A stretch of DNA of 52,641 bases from Minisyncoccota bacterium. GTDB lineage: Bacteria > Patescibacteriota > Minisyncoccia > Phycocordibacterales > UBA1550. Position 1 is the first letter of the stretch. Every line of letters starts with the position of its first letter. The notes below the pieces were generated by a model, which saw nothing but the letters and a program-made list of their open reading frames with translations, searched no databases and was not told where the DNA came from. The translations under genes were made by a program, and so were the position numbers. Of this stretch, positions 22,155-29,612 are shown piece after piece. The stretch covers positions 1 through 52,641 of the forward strand of contig JAVHQE010000064.1 in assembly GCA_036170975.1 (NCBI GenBank), written 5' to 3'.

Positions 22155-22190
22155 AAAAATCCCCATGGTCACTGGTCATGGGGATTTTTT
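22155..22190 (+). terminator. rho-independent terminator after hisS
   Basis: aaaaatccccatg / catggggattttt stem followed by a T run. Confidence 0.8.
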
Positions 22191-22218
22191 ATAAGGTTGA
22201 AAAATTGGCCATTTTTTA

Positions 22219-22375
22219 ACTAGATTCCCTGTGGTCTCTGCCACAGGGCTCCCTGTAGGAAAGTTTGAAAACCCTCGGTTTTCAAGATAATCTTGTGCGG
22301 AGCCCTTACGATACCCCGCCGATATGGAGCGGTAGCGGAATGAGGGGACAGCTCTGCTGCGGGGAGGTTCATTGG
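22219..22375 (+). ncRNA. candidate structured RNA or riboswitch-like leader (unclassified)
   Basis: GC-enriched block (spot counts 48-57%) in an AT-rich spacer. Stems: ccctgtgg/ccacaggg (22227-22248), ttgaaaacc/ggttttcaa (22265-22285) enclosed by ggctcc/ggagcc, and ccccgc/gcgggg (22315-22364). No known family motif recognised. Confidence 0.4.
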
Positions 22376-22410: not shown

Positions 22411-22950
22411 ATGAATAGAAAATTACAAATTGGGGTTATGGGGTCTGCACAAGATCTTAATTATGGTGATGCTTTGCGTGACCTTGCGCGAGAAATAGGA
22501 AAAGAGGTTGCCCGTAGCGGTAATATTGTTCTGTATGGAGCAGAGAAAGATTACGACTCTCTTTCTACTCAAGCAGCAAAAGGAGCAAAAGAAGAAGGGG
22601 GTACAACTGTCGGGGTTACTTACGGGAAAGGGAAAGATATTTGGGAACAGGAAGGGTTTACTGACATTCTTATTGTCACAGGATTAGAAAGAGGGGGTGG
22701 CCGTGAATTTGTTTTAGTAAATTCATGCGACGCTATTATAGCGATATCTGGCGGGTCAGGGACTCTTACTGAAATAGCAATTGCTTATCAATCAAACATC
22801 CCTATCGTTGTTATGGCGAATACTGGAGGTTGGGCGGAAAAATTAGAAGGAGAATATCTTGATACGAGGAGTAGAATAAAAGCTGAAGTCGCCCATACTC
22901 CAAAGGAGGCAGTTGAAAAAGCGATAAGATTTTGCGATTTTAAAAAGTGA
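22411..22950 (+). CDS. LOG/SLOG-fold protein (TIGR00725-like Rossmann nucleotide-binding protein)
   Basis: N-terminal IGVMGSA and the ISGGSGTLTEIAIA (GGxGTxxE) signature of the LOG/lysine-decarboxylase-like family. Confidence 0.7.
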   Translation: MNRKLQIGVMGSAQDLNYGDALRDLAREIGKEVARSGNIVLYGAEKDYDSLSTQAAKGAKEEGGTTVGVTYGKGKDIWEQEGFTDILIVTGLERGGGREFVLVNSCDAIIAISGGSGTLTEIAIAYQSNIPIVVMANTGGWAEKLEGEYLDTRSRIKAEVAHTPKEAVEKAIRFCDFKK

Positions 22951-23031
22951 TTTTTGTTGCGTTAATCCTTACGGTATGGTAGCCTTGACAGGGGTTCTTT
23001 CTACTATGGTTCATATTTCTGGAGGTTTATT

Positions 23032-23997
23032 GTGAATAGTTCAACTAGCTTTTCTGGTAACGGCAGTCATCACCGACACTTTTCTGGGACACACTATGTG
23101 GTTTCCGAGGACGTCGATATCCTTGTTTCTCGTTGGTGCAAAAGAAAAGGATTCATCCCACCTAGCCTTGATTTTTATGTTTCTCAACGCGCTCGGACGA
23201 AAGCCTTTCTTCAGAATATCTTTGCGCGAGTTACTTTTATCGACGGGAAAGAGATACAGAATGGGTTGATTGCTTCTGTAGCTCAGCATAAAAAGAACGG
23301 TCTCATCGTGGTTGGCCTTGAACGGGTCTACCTCGAGGACTCTTTTTTTGATGCACGTATTGAAATTACACGAAGTGTTGATGGCGACAGAAGAGATATT
23401 CAGATTCCTATGCCACGCAAAGGCACACCTTCGAAGCGTGTCCAGTTCGAACAACTTCGAGGGAAGAACATTGCTCTGGTTGACGATGTGGTATTTTCTG
23501 GAAAAACACTCGTAGGTACGATTTCTGAACTCCATAAGTATCACGTAAATGTTCACGCAGTTACAGCAGCGATCGGTGTAAAAAATGGCGTGGATTACTT
23601 GAACAATGCGCAATTTGCTATTAGGGGGATGCCAGACCACCTGATTGTTCATTGTTTGGAAGAGTTTGATGGTGTAAGCGATCAGATTTGCGAAAGAGAT
23701 CTTTATCCAGGTGTTCCGTATTCAGGGCGTGAATTTTTTGGTGTTGAGAACTTCTCGTTCCCGTACGTGTACCCTTTTGGGCAGGTTCAGGAGTGGGCGT
23801 CAATTCCTGAAAAAGAAGCCAAACAATTCTCGCTCATTTGCCTTGAAAACACGATTGCACTGTTTGAAGAGATACAGAACTTAAATAATGTAGTCCTTAC
23901 ATGCCAAAATGTTCCAAGGCCTGTGTTCGGTTCTCCGAAAGACAGCACTCCATTCGTTTCGTTTCTTAAGGAGAAATGTGCATTATGTTTGAGTTAA
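23032..23997 (+). CDS. phosphoribosyltransferase-domain protein with unassigned N- and C-terminal regions
   Basis: GTG start 6 nt after GGAGG. PRPP-binding loop NIALVDDVVFSGKTL. About 130 aa upstream and about 150 aa downstream of the loop have no recognisable motif. Confidence 0.6.
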   Translation: MNSSTSFSGNGSHHRHFSGTHYVVSEDVDILVSRWCKRKGFIPPSLDFYVSQRARTKAFLQNIFARVTFIDGKEIQNGLIASVAQHKKNGLIVVGLERVYLEDSFFDARIEITRSVDGDRRDIQIPMPRKGTPSKRVQFEQLRGKNIALVDDVVFSGKTLVGTISELHKYHVNVHAVTAAIGVKNGVDYLNNAQFAIRGMPDHLIVHCLEEFDGVSDQICERDLYPGVPYSGREFFGVENFSFPYVYPFGQVQEWASIPEKEAKQFSLICLENTIALFEEIQNLNNVVLTCQNVPRPVFGSPKDSTPFVSFLKEKCALCLS

Positions 23998-24013
23998 GGT
24001 AATTTTTAGTTTT

Positions 24014-24052
24014 AGGGCCTATTACTTGTTAATAAGTAGTAGGCCCTTTTTT
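24014..24052 (+). terminator. rho-independent terminator
   Basis: agggcctattactt / aagtagtaggccct stem (14 bp, one G-U), 6-nt loop, T run. Confidence 0.8.
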
Positions 24053-24112
24053 ATTTTTATATAAATTTAAAGAAAAATTATTTGCGTTTTGCCATGGTTT
24101 TTGTTCTTTATT

Positions 24113-25048
24113 ATGAGTATGCTACAATTTATTAATAAAAGTTGTAGGTTTTTAATTTTTCAAAATATGAAAGTTTCCATTGATGATGATAATAGTATTG
24201 GGTACGAAAGGAATAGTTTACTTAAATCTTTTTTTAATAAACTTTATATACCATTTTTAAACCTCCTCCCTTCAAGTGCCCGAGGCTTTGTAAAGAATAC
24301 GCATACCTCTGCAAGAAATGTCATTGAAAAAGCAACGACTCATCACGCTATTGAGATTTTATATAAGTTTGGGGAACCTGAGAAGTCAAAAACGCTTCTT
24401 CAGAAGTTTTTTCATTATATCTGGTTCACTACGGATAATTCAAAAGCCGTACGAAATCGTTTACGGCTAGTCACCAAGAAATTAAAAGATGCGATTGCGG
24501 TACATCTTGCTTCTGGTAAACGAGTGAAAATATTAAGCGTAGCCGCGGGGTCAGCGCGCGCGATCCTCGATGCTACTTACATGCATGACCTAAAAGAGGT
24601 GGGGGCAGATGTTACCTTTTTGGATAAAAATCCGCAAGCGCATATCTATAGCAAGGGGCTTATCGAGAGTCGTCATTATAACAAAAATTATAAGTTTAAC
24701 TGGGTCGTTGACACTGCAAACAATTTCCCTCATTACTTTAAAGATGCTGGTAAGCCTAACATTATTGAGATTGTCGGATTATTGGACTATTTTGATGAAG
24801 CGGGGATCAAGAGATTATTTACTTCTGTTTTTCAAAATCTTGAGCAGGGGGGAGTTTTTATTACTTCAAATATCGTAGATAATCCAGAGCGTAGATTTAT
24901 AACAAAAGTAGTTGGTTGGCACATGCTTTACAAAAGACCTGAAGATTTTTACAAGATCGCACGAGAAGTTGGGTTCAAAGATGAAGAGCTGGAGTTTATT
25001 TATGAACCATTCAAGATTCATTTTATTATGATCGCGAACAAATCATAA
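24113..25048 (+). CDS. class I SAM-dependent methyltransferase-like protein
   Basis: Motif I-like VKILSVAAGSARAILDA, acidic FLDKNP, and post-I/II elements (IIEIVGLLDYF, GGVFITSNI). Start uncertain (track TTG 24089; ATG 24113 or 24167). Confidence 0.6.
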   Translation: MSMLQFINKSCRFLIFQNMKVSIDDDNSIGYERNSLLKSFFNKLYIPFLNLLPSSARGFVKNTHTSARNVIEKATTHHAIEILYKFGEPEKSKTLLQKFFHYIWFTTDNSKAVRNRLRLVTKKLKDAIAVHLASGKRVKILSVAAGSARAILDATYMHDLKEVGADVTFLDKNPQAHIYSKGLIESRHYNKNYKFNWVVDTANNFPHYFKDAGKPNIIEIVGLLDYFDEAGIKRLFTSVFQNLEQGGVFITSNIVDNPERRFITKVVGWHMLYKRPEDFYKIAREVGFKDEELEFIYEPFKIHFIMIANKS

Positions 25049-25081: not shown

Positions 25082-26776
25082 ATGGACTATCAAATAAAAT
25101 TACTAGCAATTGCTACTGCGGTAAATATTTTTTTTAGTTTTTTTGTATCGCGACAGGAAAGAACTCCTGCAAATATTTTATTCGCGTTGTTTACCTTGTT
25201 GATTGGCCTGTGGTCCTTTGCCGTTGGCTTTTTTATTTATACAACAAATTGGGAATTAGTATTAATTACTGCCAATCTTTTTTATTTGGCGCCCCCTTTA
25301 ATTGCAACGGTCTTTCTTTACTTCTCCATTATTTTTACAGGAGGATCCTTTAAGAAAAAGTATTATTTAAATTTACTTCCATTTTTTATTCTTATTGGTA
25401 TTTTTATCTTTGATCCACACTTTCTTCTTGATAGTATTTATTCCGTAGATTATGGAACGTATAAGGATGTTGTGGTTAATAAAGCACACTACTTGTACTA
25501 CTCTGCTTATATTTTTTCCTACATAATTGCTTCTTATGTTGTTCTCTTGAGTGCGAAAAGAACGATTTTTGGAAAGAGAATTGAAAAACAGCTGGATATT
25601 TTAATTGTGGGGACATTCACTTCTTATGTTTTAGCGACTGTTTTTAATCTCGCTCTCCCCTTTACGGGGAACTACCAACTAATCGCTTTTGGGCCATTAT
25701 TTACACTTATCATGGTTTTTTCGATTGCCTATGCGATTTTTAAGTATCATCTTTTCAATGTACGGCTTATCCTTGTTGAAATGTTACTTATCTTACTTAA
25801 CTTATTCTTGTTCCTAAATATCTTCACTTCGTATGCTCAAATAGATTTTGTATTGAATATTTCAGTTTTGATTGCCGTATTTATCTTAAGTTTCCTCCTC
25901 CTCCGGGGTATCTATAAAGACATTGACGATCAAGAAAAAATTGCAGTGCTTGCTCAAAATATGTCCAGTGCAAATGATCGGTTGCGTACCATGGAAGAGC
26001 AAAAAACCGAATTTGTTTCGATTGCCTCACATCAACTACGCACACCCCTGACGGTTATCAAGGGTTATGCGTCAATGATCCTTGAGGGAACTTTTGGTGC
26101 AACAAGTCCTACTGTTCGTGAAGCCGTCGAGAATCTATACAAATCAAGCGAAAAGATTGTTGCCCTTGTCGAGGATCTTTTAACGGTGTCGCGTATCGAA
26201 CAGGGACGTATCACACTTATTTTTGAAAAGGTGAACTTGGTTAATTTTGCACAAGATGTTATTTCAGAGATGGTTACAGAAATAAGAGAAGCGGGCATTG
26301 ACATGGCCTTTAATGCTGAAGGGAATAAACAATTTTTTGTAAACTTAGACCCAATAAAATTCAGACAGGCCTTAAGGCATATTCTTGATAACGCTATCAA
26401 GTACACTCCAGAAGGAGGAAGAATACGAGTCTCTATTTTTCGAGAAAATCTCTCTGGGAAGGCGCACATCGCTATTTCTGACACGGGGATAGGTATGAGC
26501 CAAGAGCAATTAAAATCGATTTTTGAAGGCTTTAATCTGAAGGCAGAAATGAGCAATCAAAAATCTGTTGAAGTGAGCAGGGAAGCAAATGATGATGTTG
26601 AGCAAATACTCGCACGTTCTTCTGTATCTAAAAATAATACGATGGGAATTGGACTCTATATTGCCGAAGAGATTATTGATGCTCATCGTGGAACCCTGAG
26701 TATTGAATCTGCGGGAACAGGTACAGGTACGACGGTAATAATAAATCTACCTTGTGCACAAGAAAAAGAAAATTAA
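25082..26776 (+). CDS. sensor histidine kinase with an N-terminal multi-TM (7TM-type) sensor domain
   Basis: About 7 TM helices, H-box SIASHQLRTPLTVIKGY, N-box LDNAIKYTP, G1 DTGIGM, G2 GIGLYIA. The ATP lid is about 23 aa longer than in the paralog. Confidence 0.85.
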   Translation: MDYQIKLLAIATAVNIFFSFFVSRQERTPANILFALFTLLIGLWSFAVGFFIYTTNWELVLITANLFYLAPPLIATVFLYFSIIFTGGSFKKKYYLNLLPFFILIGIFIFDPHFLLDSIYSVDYGTYKDVVVNKAHYLYYSAYIFSYIIASYVVLLSAKRTIFGKRIEKQLDILIVGTFTSYVLATVFNLALPFTGNYQLIAFGPLFTLIMVFSIAYAIFKYHLFNVRLILVEMLLILLNLFLFLNIFTSYAQIDFVLNISVLIAVFILSFLLLRGIYKDIDDQEKIAVLAQNMSSANDRLRTMEEQKTEFVSIASHQLRTPLTVIKGYASMILEGTFGATSPTVREAVENLYKSSEKIVALVEDLLTVSRIEQGRITLIFEKVNLVNFAQDVISEMVTEIREAGIDMAFNAEGNKQFFVNLDPIKFRQALRHILDNAIKYTPEGGRIRVSIFRENLSGKAHIAISDTGIGMSQEQLKSIFEGFNLKAEMSNQKSVEVSREANDDVEQILARSSVSKNNTMGIGLYIAEEIIDAHRGTLSIESAGTGTGTTVIINLPCAQEKEN

Positions 26777-26836
26777 GCAGATTAGTTTTTCGATATCTTT
26801 TTAAAATTTTAGTGGTGGGTATGATACAATATTGAT

Positions 26837-28495
26837 ATGAATGTTTCGACACTTGATATTATTCACAACATATCGTTTGTAGGATGGGCGGTTGTTCTCA
26901 TAAGCTTTTTGCTCACTCTTTTTTCAGGGATTATTTTTTGGCAAGATGTAACAAAACGAAGTAATCGTTTTTTCTTTTTCTTTGGGGCAATCATCGGTGT
27001 GTGGGGTCTTGCGTACGCTTTTTTTGAGGGAACGTTGGGTACCCCTCTTGTACACCAGTCAATTATTGTGCTCTATCTAGTGTCGGGACTCGTTCCTCTT
27101 TTTACCTTTATCTATCTCTATGTTTTTTCTACAGAAAAAACCCCTTTTTCTTTTTGGAAATTTGTAGGACTCTTTAGTTCTTATTTGACTATTTCTGCGA
27201 CATTAATTCTTCCCGACTTTGTTGTTGGGTATCAAGACGCTTTAGGTGGCGAAGCGGGAAGAATAATTTTTGGGAAGGGATACTTACTTTACGCTATGTA
27301 TGTCTGTGGTTTTCTTGTTGCGGGGGTCTATATCCTTGTGCAGAAATATCGAGAAAGCGCGGGGATTTTTAAGATTGTTATTCGCGATCTTCTTATCGCG
27401 CTCTCCTTTGGTTTTCTGGTTGTCGTTTCTATAGAGGTTCTTTTCCCTTTGTTAAGTGGCGGAAGTAATTTATTTTGGGTTGGGCATCTAAGTGTCGTTA
27501 CTTTTGGAATTACTACTTCAGTTATTCTTGCGCGGTACAATTTTTGGAGTATTAAAGTAGTAATGACTGAGTTTTTTATTTCGATCGTCATTTTTATTTT
27601 AATAATAGAACTTTTTCTTGCAAACTCTATTCTTGATTTGTTTATAAAGACAGCCATCCTGTTGTTCATTGTTCTTTCGAGTTCATTTTTGGCAGGAAGT
27701 CTTCAGCGTGAGATTGAATCAAAAGAAAAGATTACGAGGCTTTTGCGTGACCTTGAGTTTCTTTCAAAACAGTTCAAGATTCTTGATAGGAAAAAATCAG
27801 AATTTCTTGCAATCTCATCTCATCATTTACGGGACCCGCTCACCGCAATTAACGGGTATGCTTCTATGCTCATGGAGGGGTCTTTTGGTGAGATCTCGCC
27901 CGCCCTCCACAGTGCTCTTGAAAAAATTTTTGAATCAAGCAAGCGCTTGATAACCATGGTGTCTGATTTTCTTGATATTTCACGTATTGAGAGTGGGCAT
28001 ATGAAGTATAATTTTGAAGAAGTTGATATGAAGAAAATAGTGGTTGAGGTTGGTGATGAAATGAAATTAAACGCTCAGCATGCGGGGCTTGTTTTCAACA
28101 TGGATATCAAAGAAGGGGAATATGGGAAAGAGACATTTTTTACCATAGGGGATGCTGGCAAGTTAAGGCAAGTTATTTCGAACCTTATTGATAATTCAAT
28201 AAAATATACACCTCATGGAGAAGTCATGATATCTCTAGAGAAAAGCGCTGATAGAAAGAAAATTATTTTTAGTATCACTGATACGGGAATCGGGATGAGC
28301 AAAGAAACTATTGGAAAGATTTTTAAAAAATTTAGTCGTGCGGATGGGGTGAGCAAACTTTACACGGAAGGCACTGGGCTTGGGCTCTACGTGGCAAAAG
28401 AAATTATGAAAAAACACGAAGGGCGTATCTGGGCAGATTCAAAAGGTGAGGGCGTTGGGTCATCTTTTCACCTTGAGTTGGAGGTAAAGTTATAA
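26837..28495 (+). CDS. sensor histidine kinase, paralog of the upstream gene
   Basis: Multi-TM N-terminus, H-box AISSHHLRDPLTAINGY, N-box IDNSIKYTP, G1 DTGIGM, G2 GTGLGLYVA. Confidence 0.85.
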   Translation: MNVSTLDIIHNISFVGWAVVLISFLLTLFSGIIFWQDVTKRSNRFFFFFGAIIGVWGLAYAFFEGTLGTPLVHQSIIVLYLVSGLVPLFTFIYLYVFSTEKTPFSFWKFVGLFSSYLTISATLILPDFVVGYQDALGGEAGRIIFGKGYLLYAMYVCGFLVAGVYILVQKYRESAGIFKIVIRDLLIALSFGFLVVVSIEVLFPLLSGGSNLFWVGHLSVVTFGITTSVILARYNFWSIKVVMTEFFISIVIFILIIELFLANSILDLFIKTAILLFIVLSSSFLAGSLQREIESKEKITRLLRDLEFLSKQFKILDRKKSEFLAISSHHLRDPLTAINGYASMLMEGSFGEISPALHSALEKIFESSKRLITMVSDFLDISRIESGHMKYNFEEVDMKKIVVEVGDEMKLNAQHAGLVFNMDIKEGEYGKETFFTIGDAGKLRQVISNLIDNSIKYTPHGEVMISLEKSADRKKIIFSITDTGIGMSKETIGKIFKKFSRADGVSKLYTEGTGLGLYVAKEIMKKHEGRIWADSKGEGVGSSFHLELEVKL

Positions 28496-28610: not shown

Positions 28611-29612
28611 ATGCATACCACTGAAACAATCCTTTCGGGCATTCGTGCTACAGGAAGGCTCCATTTTGGAAACTTCCTTGGCGCAGTTCAAAACTTCGTT
28701 AAATTCCAGCAACCCGGGAATACGTGTCTTTACTTCATCGCAGATTGGCATACCCTGACCACCCTTCAGAACCCTGAAGAGCTTCGGGGAAACCTGATCG
28801 AGATAGTGAAGGACTACATTGCCGCGGGTCTCGACCCAGAGCAGTCGACTATCTACGCTCAATCAAGTGTTCCGGAAATTTCGGAGCTTTGTTTGTACTT
28901 GAGTATGATTCAACCACTCGGAGACCTGGAGAGAATCCCAACGTTCAAGGATCTTATCCGTAAGAACCCTGACAATGTGAATTTAGGAATCGTCACATAC
29001 CCAGTTCTTATGGCGGCTGACATCTTAGGGCCGAAGGCGACATTTGTTCCAGTTGGTGAAGATCAGGTTCCAAATGTTGAACTTGCACGGGCCTTGGCTC
29101 ACAAGTTTAATAGTCGTTTTGGGGAAACGTTTATTATCCCCAACATGATGCAGCAAATGATTCGGGTGCCTGGTCTCGACGGAAGCAAGATGGGAAAGTC
29201 GGAATCGGATAATGCAATTGATATAAATTCCCCGATTTCTGTAATCAGGGAGCGTTATCTCAAAAAGGGGGTTACGGATATAGAGCGTAAACGCGCTTCG
29301 GATCCGGGTGACCCCTATGGTCGTTGTCAATCTGTGTACCCCGTACACGAGTTGGTTACGGCTGGCGAAACCGAAACACGAACTATTGCGAATGCTTGTC
29401 GCACCGCTCAGATAGGGTGCAAAGAATGTAAACATCGACTTGTAGACGGCATCGCCAAGATATTGGAACCGTTCCAAGCAGCACGCGCTGAACTTTCTGA
29501 AAAGGATGACTATATCGAAGAAATCCTCCATGAAGGTGGCAAAAAAGCACGTGTGATGATTTGCGAAACAACTATGGATGTCCGCGAGAAAATGGGCATC
29601 GTTATCTATTAA
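28611..29612 (+). CDS. trpS: tryptophan--tRNA ligase, paralog 1, with a Cys4 (4Fe-4S-type) motif
   Basis: HFGN (HIGH-like), KMGKS (KMSKS-like), and C-x23-C-x6-C-x2-C (GRCQSV...NACRTAQIGCKECK). The coding sequence is GC-rich. Confidence 0.85.
   Translation: MHTTETILSGIRATGRLHFGNFLGAVQNFVKFQQPGNTCLYFIADWHTLTTLQNPEELRGNLIEIVKDYIAAGLDPEQSTIYAQSSVPEISELCLYLSMIQPLGDLERIPTFKDLIRKNPDNVNLGIVTYPVLMAADILGPKATFVPVGEDQVPNVELARALAHKFNSRFGETFIIPNMMQQMIRVPGLDGSKMGKSESDNAIDINSPISVIRERYLKKGVTDIERKRASDPGDPYGRCQSVYPVHELVTAGETETRTIANACRTAQIGCKECKHRLVDGIAKILEPFQAARAELSEKDDYIEEILHEGGKKARVMICETTMDVREKMGIVIY

Follow-up and report, generated by a model that had tools for sequence, protein, structure and literature searches.

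A histidyl-tRNA synthetase paralog, a SLOG cluster-4 protein, and a type I phosphoribosyltransferase-like protein form a histidine-linked gene module in a Minisyncoccota genome

Identification of the module

We analyzed a 52,641-nucleotide stretch of DNA (here called the window) from a Minisyncoccota bacterium (contig JAVHQE010000064.1 of assembly GCA_036170975.1) and found that it contains one copy of a histidine-linked accessory module, which consists of genes for a histidyl-tRNA synthetase paralog (HisRS-M, for module-linked HisRS), a SLOG cluster-4 protein, and a type I phosphoribosyltransferase (PRTase)-like protein. An original prediction, made from the letters of this DNA, had grouped the latter two genes with a methyltransferase gene into a nucleotide-centered module. 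The three same-strand open reading frames (ORFs) on which it was based are indeed present (22411 to 22950, 179 aa; 23032 to 23997, 321 aa, with a GTG start; and 24089 to 25048), and the pairing of the SLOG and PRTase genes was borne out by comparison with other genomes, whereas L136, the closest relative of the window, is the only other locus where the methyltransferase gene adjoins them. The hisS gene directly upstream of the pair, which had gone unmentioned, turned out to be its recurrent third partner. We found no description of the module in the literature, and the HisRS-SLOG-PRTase combination has apparently not been described before. As to its role, we lean toward an accessory function under histidine limitation.

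The window belongs to a genome of 0.86 Mb (G000; 92.8% complete, 167 contigs); compared loci and genomes are designated with L- and G-numbers, respectively. The PRTase-centered comparison comprised 23 nonredundant loci from metagenome contigs and GTDB species genomes, labeled as Patescibacteria, Saccharibacteria, Bacilli, Clostridia, Mollicutes, and proteobacterial metagenome-assembled genomes, and the SLOG-centered census comprised 27 metagenome loci with at least 2.5 kb on each side. Because the compared genomes are metagenome assembled and 82 to 100% complete, absences in the genomes carrying the module, and all other failures to find a gene, are provisional.

Conservation of gene linkage

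A SLOG ortholog adjoins the PRTase-like gene in 22 of the 23 PRTase-centered loci. The sole exception is L018, where the PRTase-like gene heads a nucleoside/ribose operon with genes for a HAD phosphatase, a nucleoside hydrolase, a PfkB kinase, FBA, and FBPase and without a SLOG gene. When the census was centered on the SLOG gene, a PRTase-like gene was found within 3.5 kb at 19 of 27 loci, a HisRS gene at 15, and a histidine ammonia-lyase gene at 7, and 20 loci carried one or more of the histidine markers HisRS, hisR, histidine ammonia-lyase, and HisG. In a tally of 88 genes around the pair, HisRS (tRNA-synt_His) led by a wide margin (12 genes), followed by AstE/AspA (4 genes), with histidine ammonia-lyase, nucleoside hydrolase, TrpR-like, WYL, CYTH, NUDIX, and PfkB genes occurring twice each. 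Besides, the module genes overlap or abut in L008, L032, and L033. We conclude that the genes for the SLOG and PRTase-like proteins form a genuine, conserved, and functionally linked pair, and that the recurrent third partner of this pair is the upstream hisS gene, not the methyltransferase gene.

At four loci (L019, L042, L071, and L073), genes for histidine ammonia-lyase, the PRTase-like protein, and the SLOG protein lie side by side on the same strand, about 75 to 110 nt apart, and in the first three of these a HisRS gene lies about 0.4 to 4 kb from the cluster. The remaining Hut pathway was not seen at these four loci.

PRTase-like protein

A binding loop for phosphoribosyl pyrophosphate (PRPP) had been named as the sole recognizable feature of the 321-aa protein, and this proved correct: the loop IALVDDVVFSGKTL is its only library match, and the PF00156 hit (23.7 bits, under the cutoff of 26.3) is confined to it. 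The score against PF24390 was 20.3 bits, also under the cutoff (27). Within the loop (residues 147 to 160), the motif IALVDDVVFSGKT at residues 147 to 159 has the strand, acidic dyad, and turn of type I PRTases. The DD..SGKT loop is intact, and ≥90% of the 45 distant family members that were compared share the dyad (D151/D152). The GTG start with a strong GGAGG ribosome-binding site, both noted previously, is as described, and the start is further supported because homologs begin with MNSSNSF.

Approximately 37 full-length close homologs (53 to 70% identity) were found in Patescibacteria-type metagenome contigs. A profile search collected 621 cluster representatives at an E value of ≤1e-3, mostly 285 to 320 aa long and matching end to end; thus, the PRTase-like proteins constitute a sizeable uncharacterized family. 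The window protein is a member of this family of approximately 300-aa proteins, for which no model exists. Residues conserved in at least 90% of the 45 distant members include W35, P44, R114, R129, D151, D152, G157, D217, C220, R222, D223, G232, Y245, P248, and W255, among others; several arginines are invariant or nearly so across the family, and the family has its own signature block (DQxCERDFYPGxPYSGR...PYxxPFG...WASIP).

An AlphaFold2 model of the protein (pLDDT, 87.4; pTM, 0.86) matched only type I PRTases in Foldseek (APRT, OPRT, XPRT, and HGPRT, some of them ppGpp bound), with a probability of 1.0 to APRT, OPRT, and XPRT. The matches cover about 160 to 195 residues at 12 to 17% identity, with TM-scores of about 0.3 when normalized to the query and about 0.5 when normalized to the target, and the N- and C-terminal elements, which had been flagged as unassigned flanks of the loop, have no counterpart in the PDB. 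The model thus points to a type I PRTase fold. Given the intact DD..SGKT loop, the predicted fold, and the near-invariant arginines, PRTase chemistry is plausible for the family.

Fusions were also observed: a PRTase-like domain is joined to an N-terminal GNAT acetyltransferase in one family member (P0064, 475 aa) and to a HAD hydrolase in another (P0086, 516 aa), and in the Atlas, structural neighbors of the PRTase-like domain are fused to NadD-like nucleotidyltransferases.

Ordinary nucleobase or nucleotide salvage would be one explanation for the pair, and a simple salvage role was considered in the original prediction. A divergent purine/pyrimidine PRTase would then work with a SLOG nucleoside monophosphate phosphoribohydrolase, and the adjacency of hisS would be inherited synteny. 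The identity of the top Foldseek matches, the top PDB match in phmmer (HGXPRT), the operon of L018, and the occurrence in the family of HAD fusions and a nearby nucleoside hydrolase are all in line with this. However, every NCBIfam PRTase model scored only 12 to 25 bits against cutoffs of 113 to 327 and matched only at the PRPP loop, so the protein received no standard salvage assignment; with the linkage of the two genes conserved as well, neither of the two findings that the original prediction had named as refuting a module was made. The supply of PRPP argues in the same direction. PRPP synthetase (TIGR01251) was below the cutoff in G000, G022, G439, G440, G441, G018, G023, and the 100%-complete G024, was near the cutoff in G335, and was present in two Bacilli carriers, leaving five of six Patescibacteria-type carriers with no above-cutoff copy. 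No member of the genus of the window that was tested (G000, G018, G022, G023, and G024) reached the cutoff; nonetheless, G023 has HisG, and G000 and G022 have the PRTase-like gene. Forward PRPP-dependent base salvage would therefore be hard to sustain in this genus, and G000 has only one other PF00156-type match. Furthermore, the PRTase family is rare, which is odd for a needed step: of 24 other species in the genus, only G022 has it (with a SLOG protein and HisRS-M, 84 and 75% identical to those of the window, encoded on the same contig), and a sample of 400 genomes from across the phylum yielded one. Salvage also leaves the histidine context described below (the HisR operator, the dedicated HisRS clade, histidine ammonia-lyase, and the placement of HisG in the PRTase slot) unexplained. 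We consider a salvage role unlikely.

SLOG protein

The 179-aa protein belongs to SLOG cluster 4, matching PF18306 with 105 bits (cutoff, 26.3) over model positions 1 to 134 of 151. The GGxGTxxE signature predicted earlier is present as SGGSGTLTE, although TIGR00725, the model to which the protein had been likened, stays under its cutoff (96.8 versus 106.9 bits), as do PF03641 (24.7 versus 27 bits) and TIGR00730 (36.5 versus 96.35 bits). The SLOG protein is the most conserved member of the module: across the PRTase-centered loci, including those of other phyla, the PRTase-adjacent orthologs are 55 to 84% identical, compared with only 26 to 69% for the PRTase-like proteins. Its nearest solved relatives are TM1055 (PDB 1rcu) and the molybdenum cofactor (Moco) carrier protein (2iz5). 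The catalytic Arg and Glu of LOG have aligned counterparts in R98 and E121, but both are also kept in the noncatalytic Moco carrier protein; the aligned residues are therefore no proof of hydrolase activity.

A second SLOG cluster-4-like paralog of about 220 aa and about 35% identity is encoded elsewhere in G000 (contig C100, 60 to 497; L015), unlinked to the module, and 20 of the 24 other species in the genus have it as well.

Histidyl-tRNA synthetase paralog

G000 possesses two full-length HisRS genes whose products are only 23% identical, both scoring above the TIGR00442 cutoff. The housekeeping gene lies on contig C4 between ybeY and the signal peptidase gene. The window HisRS reached 357.6 bits with TIGR00442 (cutoff, 286.75) and 152.7 bits with the HisZ model TIGR00443 (under the cutoff of 271.65), has an anticodon-binding domain (PF03129; E = 4.7e-12), and keeps class II motifs 2 and 3 and the HisA and HisB motifs (R114, E116, R122, R280, GGRY, and R332). 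HisRS-M of the window is thus predicted to be catalytically intact. Two HisRS were likewise present in all five other carrier genomes tested and in G022.

In a maximum-likelihood tree of 58 HisRS, built by a quick tree search with loci picked by adjacency, three supported groups were resolved. Two are housekeeping clades (support of 100 each), and the third (37 sequences; SH-aLRT, 96) holds 35 of the 36 HisRS encoded within 5 kb of a SLOG gene; copies from G018 and G023 also fall into this module-linked clade. The motif 2, HisA, HisB, and motif 3 residues are kept in 33 to 37 of its 37 members, and degenerate motifs occur in a few, among them those beside HisG in L053. With the PRK12420 model (NF009085), the window HisRS scored 242 bits, compared with 129 for the housekeeping copy, and the Bacilli-type copy of L008 scored 473. 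No published function separating PRK12420-type enzymes from ordinary HisRS was found in the literature searched.

Two reasons for keeping a second HisRS were considered and rejected. Service to two types of tRNA-His does not fit, as a single, canonical tRNA-His with an encoded G-1 and C73 was found. Queuine salvage for tRNA-His was also dropped: TGT was found in each of the five carriers tested and therefore gives no discrimination, and the idea leaves hisR, histidine ammonia-lyase, and HisG unexplained.

Additional HisRS-like sequences were encountered. In G000, an N-terminal fragment (contig C122, 1848 to 2003; L011, 1465 to 1650) that is cut off by the end of its 2-kb contig shares 47% identity with the window HisRS over 51 aa and may represent another HisRS/HisZ-like paralog; the 366-aa ORF preceding it had no Pfam match. 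In L020 (5395 to 7283, minus strand), the module HisRS gene and the SLOG gene are separated by a gene for a HisRS-like protein of 320 aa, which is HisZ-like in lacking an anticodon-binding domain, and by a homolog of the pantoate-beta-alanine ligase PanC.

Histidine control and histidine metabolism of carriers

In many loci, a TrpR-like gene immediately precedes the SLOG gene, and these TrpR-like genes match members of the HisR/YerC group, among them the HisR structure PDB 3g1c. The published HisR operator consensus, cacTTTAn6TAAAgtg (Ashniev et al. 2022, PMC9413887), was matched at 12 to 13 of 14 positions at 16 of 20 hisR-like genes, the sites lying 17 to 45 nt upstream of the called start or overlapping it, and this level was reached by none of 200 shuffles per locus. 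In its main text, that study describes a HisR regulon of genes for the biosynthesis and transport of histidine, in Firmicutes and a small number of other phyla, and mentions neither hisS nor Patescibacteria (PMC9413887).

HisG itself is encoded beside the same SLOG ortholog in L053, L075, L087, and L089, and it is of the long form in L053 and L087. In G023, which belongs to the genus of the window, one locus (L014; C5, 2956 to 5216) carries a hisR-like gene, a HisRS-M copy (436 aa, scoring as hisS at 400 bits), and an overlapping gene for short-form HisG. PF00977 (HisA/F) had no match in seven of nine carriers tested and only a weak partial match (34 to 39 bits, in a 333-aa ORF) in both Bacilli carriers. 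Among the carriers tested, HisG was found only in G023 and not in G000. The HisG of G023, a genome without HisA/F, is an orphan ATP-PRTase in a histidine auxotroph. With the HisA/F family unmatched in carriers and HisG confined to G023, the module is not part of histidine biosynthesis. For the same reason, we rejected the possibility that the PRTase-like protein replaces HisG in an otherwise complete pathway, as HisA/F and HisG are absent in carriers, including both Bacilli genomes.

These arrangements call to mind a holoenzyme of the HisZ-HisG kind, in which the extra HisRS would be the histidine-sensing subunit of the PRTase and the complex a nonhomologous analogue of ATP phosphoribosyltransferase. 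The proximity of a HisRS paralog gene to a PRTase gene recalls hisZ-hisG, as does the overlap of the HisRS-M copy with short-form HisG in G023, and both the HisG-adjacent sub-branch with degenerate motifs and the additional HisRS-like gene of L020 would suit a regulatory subunit. In contrast, the window HisRS has retained both the catalytic motifs and the anticodon-binding domain and is hisS rather than hisZ by model scores, HisRS is missing from the surroundings of many SLOG-PRTase pairs, carriers have no downstream histidine pathway that could consume phosphoribosyl-ATP (PR-ATP), and the HisG proteins of L053 and L087, being of the long form, are independent of HisZ. A holoenzyme of this kind therefore seems quite improbable.

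Local setting and distribution

The features of the module region are listed in Table 1. Its GC content (0.41 to 0.44) is the same as the window mean (0.416).

Table 1. Positions of features in and around the module (window coordinates)
Feature	Position	Strand	Basis
HisRS-M gene (hisS), 443 aa	20808-22139	+	TIGR00442, HGTP_anticodon domain
Terminator-like hairpin (CCCCATG...CATGGGG, then T run)	22161-22190	+	Read from sequence directly 3' of hisS; absent from terminator scan output
Dispersed repeat between hisS and SLOG gene	22215-22373		blastn versus genome
SLOG cluster-4 (LOG-like) protein, 179 aa	22411-22950	+	PF18306
GGAGG ribosome-binding site, 8 nt 5' of GTG start	23019-23023	+	Read from sequence
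Type-I-PRTase-like protein, 321 aa	23032-23997	+	PRPP loop; sub-cutoff PF00156/PF24390; AlphaFold2 fold
Intrinsic-terminator-like hairpin (15 pairs) and T run, closing SLOG-PRTase unit	24014-24057	+	Terminator scan
PF12147 class I SAM methyltransferase, neighbor outside module	24167-25048	+	PF12147 (28.6 bits), homolog lengths

hisS and the SLOG gene are separated by a 270-nt spacer, which holds a terminator-like hairpin and a 159-nt repeat. By blastn, the repeat has at least five further near-full copies (156 to 164 nt, 98.8 to 100% identity) on C162, C62, C149, C4, and C90, and fragments of it lie at many contig ends of G000; it is probably the cause of much of the break-up of the assembly into 167 contigs. 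A candidate riboswitch had been proposed for this structured spacer, but the sequence is a multicopy dispersed repeat and had no match in Rfam, and we abandoned the idea.

The third ORF is a class I S-adenosylmethionine (SAM) methyltransferase gene as predicted (PF12147; cutoff, 21 bits), and a terminator with a 15-bp stem (24014 to 24047) and a T run does separate it from the PRTase-like gene. Its real start is the ATG at 24167, since homologs are 293 aa long. The PF12147 family has at least 200 homolog clusters across Patescibacteria, mostly of 293 aa and independent of the module. The neighborhood comparison, the strong terminator, and this wide independent distribution led us to exclude the methyltransferase from the module. 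The downstream orphan kinases, which had been regarded as part of the context, fared no better, being common only to the window and L136. They are two tandem 7TM-type histidine kinases (HisKA_7TM, HisKA, and HATPase_c; 25082 to 28495) with a GC content of 0.36 to 0.38, compared with the mean of 0.416, and the first of them is conserved 3' of the methyltransferase gene in L136. A TrpRS-like ORF of 333 aa lies 3.5 kb downstream (28611 to 29612).

In the window, the module is bordered by an acyltransferase gene on one side and by the methyltransferase gene on the other. In G024, a relative that lacks the module (L137; C7, 25500 to 35000), the same interval holds different cargo, namely, genes for an inositol-1-phosphate-synthase-like protein, an NTP_transf_2 protein, another methyltransferase, one protein of unknown function, and an IS200 Y1 transposase; the site is thus a variable region. 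Across phyla, the module is rare, patchy, and horizontally spread.

A conflict-system association of SLOG and PRTase domains had been raised in the original prediction. Anti-phage or toxin-antitoxin systems of a PRTase-plus-SLOG type would be a Shosta-like system or a retron type III-A effector. In Shosta, a PRTase toxin is paired with a DprA-like partner of the SLOG fold. The rare and patchy distribution of the module, its position in a variable interval with IS200-type elements, and toxin-antitoxin genes nearby in L001 and L007 would agree with such a role. The profile searches argue otherwise: PADLOC gave no defense assignment (best E value, 0.0026, 15.3 bits, at the PRPP loop only; ShosT, E = 0.042; no match for the SLOG protein), PF24390 stayed below its cutoff, and no reverse transcriptase was present among the 25 most common flanking-gene families. 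Moreover, the HisR operators, the HisRS clade, and the metabolic neighbors point to metabolism. We therefore rejected a defense system, which we regard as extremely improbable here.

The variable neighbors also bring to mind an antimetabolite pathway with self-resistance, in which the pair, together with GNAT, PanC-like, and AstE-like genes, would make a histidine-related or nucleotide-like inhibitor and HisRS-M would be the resistant copy of its target. A second aminoacyl-tRNA synthetase (aaRS) beside biosynthetic genes is a classic pattern of self-resistance, and the patchy cross-phylum distribution and tailoring-type neighbors (GNAT, AstE/AspA, the PanC-like ligase, and the GNAT-PRTase fusion) would fit. 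However, no exporter or recognizable scaffold enzymes are present, control by a histidine repressor suits nutrition better than antibiosis, and many copies of the pair have no HisRS. This pathway is very unlikely, in our opinion.

Possible function

Standard salvage, histidine biosynthesis, and known defense systems all fit the module poorly, and salvage, a HisZ-HisG-like holoenzyme, an antimetabolite pathway, and defense are all less well supported than a histidine-linked accessory module. Within the latter, we have a slight preference for a module that is used when histidine is scarce. HisRS-M, kept beside the housekeeping HisRS, would then keep tRNA-His charged. The PRTase-like enzyme might add 5-phosphoribosyl to a ring nitrogen of an adenine-nucleotide-like or imidazole-type substrate or remove it pyrophosphorolytically; ring-nitrogen phosphoribosylation is the reaction that HisG carries out with ATP. 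The SLOG protein would hydrolyze or bind the resulting N-ribotide, so that the SLOG-PRTase pair might adjust the amount of such a metabolite to the supply of histidine. That the product is PR-ATP-like is rather doubtful.

Several points weigh against a role in histidine limitation. A forward PRTase followed by a phosphoribohydrolase would on paper make a futile cycle. The LOG-type Arg/Glu pair is, as a sequence feature, insufficient to establish the SLOG protein as a hydrolase. In the window itself, a terminator-like hairpin and the repeat insertion separate hisS from the SLOG gene, hisR was not found in G000 by tblastn, and no HisR-operator-like site (≤3 mismatches) lies near the module; the window copy thus shows no sign of histidine control. 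Elsewhere, SLOG-PRTase pairs occur with no HisRS nearby (L016, L024, L028, L029, L031, and G335), and the PRTase-like gene of L018 belongs to a nucleoside/ribose operon without SLOG. Histidine ammonia-lyase would be paradoxical in a starvation-induced gene set unless it runs in reverse. Finally, the sequence was found only in DNA runs of a groundwater metagenome, with no RNA run among those listed.

A more specific version, in which the module is a histidine-starvation signaling or growth-control device of histidine-auxotrophic bacteria, appears improbable to us. Scarce histidine would lead the PRTase, be it of the type I family or HisG in the same slot, to make a PR-ATP-like N-phosphoribosylated nucleotide that would have no biosynthetic fate in carrier genomes; the SLOG protein would be the hydrolase or receptor of this nucleotide, and HisRS-M would be the histidine-sensing or output arm.

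Whichever of these holds for the histidine-linked module, small-genome carriers cannot make histidine and yet keep, and exchange across phyla, a second HisRS, a LOG-like protein, and a new PRTase family, which in other genomes are wired to a histidine repressor. Solving the chemistry of the module would assign functions to two sizeable uncharacterized protein families and explain the persistence of aaRS duplicates in minimal genomes, and it might reveal how host-dependent bacteria sense or cope with amino acid shortage. The module also offers a testable parallel to the HisZ-HisG system.

Comparison with known systems

The short-form ATP phosphoribosyltransferase, HisZ-HisG(S), resembles the module in that a HisRS paralog is encoded beside a PRTase in a histidine-controlled gene set, and in some genomes HisG itself occupies the PRTase slot beside the same SLOG ortholog or a HisRS-M copy. 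The window PRTase, however, has the predicted type I fold and not the HisG fold, the window HisRS retains the catalytic motifs and anticodon domain and fails the hisZ model, the constant partner in the module is SLOG, and carriers are without the rest of the histidine pathway. The type I purine/pyrimidine PRTases (APRT, HGPRT/XPRT, and OPRT; 5znq, 2dy0, and 1y0b) share with the window protein the core fold and the acidic-dyad/SGKT loop. The latter nevertheless superposes on them over only about half to three-fifths of its length and at low identity, has extra terminal elements and its own motif block, and is below every curated cutoff.

Among LOG/SLOG cluster-4 proteins (PF18306; 1rcu, 2iz5, and LOG 7w2i), the window SLOG protein is a PF18306 member with the GGxGTxxE loop and the aligned Arg/Glu, but it is below the TIGR00725, TIGR00730, and PF03641 cutoffs and belongs to a tight orthologous group tied to the PRTase-like gene across phyla. 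Module-linked HisRS proteins fit the PRK12420-type histidine--tRNA ligase model (NF009085) better than the housekeeping copy does, although all of them are under its cutoff of 540 bits. Shosta (ShosT PRTase and DprA-like ShosA) and retron type III-A systems also either pair a PRTase-domain protein with a SLOG-superfamily protein or use it as an accessory effector; in the window, by contrast, the profile matches are insignificant, neither a reverse transcriptase nor a noncoding RNA context was seen, and the context of the module is metabolic and histidine related. The HisR (YerC/TrpR-family) regulon is a counterpart on the side of control: the window genome has neither hisR nor an operator at the module, whereas elsewhere the hisR genes beside the module have the published operator, at 16 of 20 related loci.

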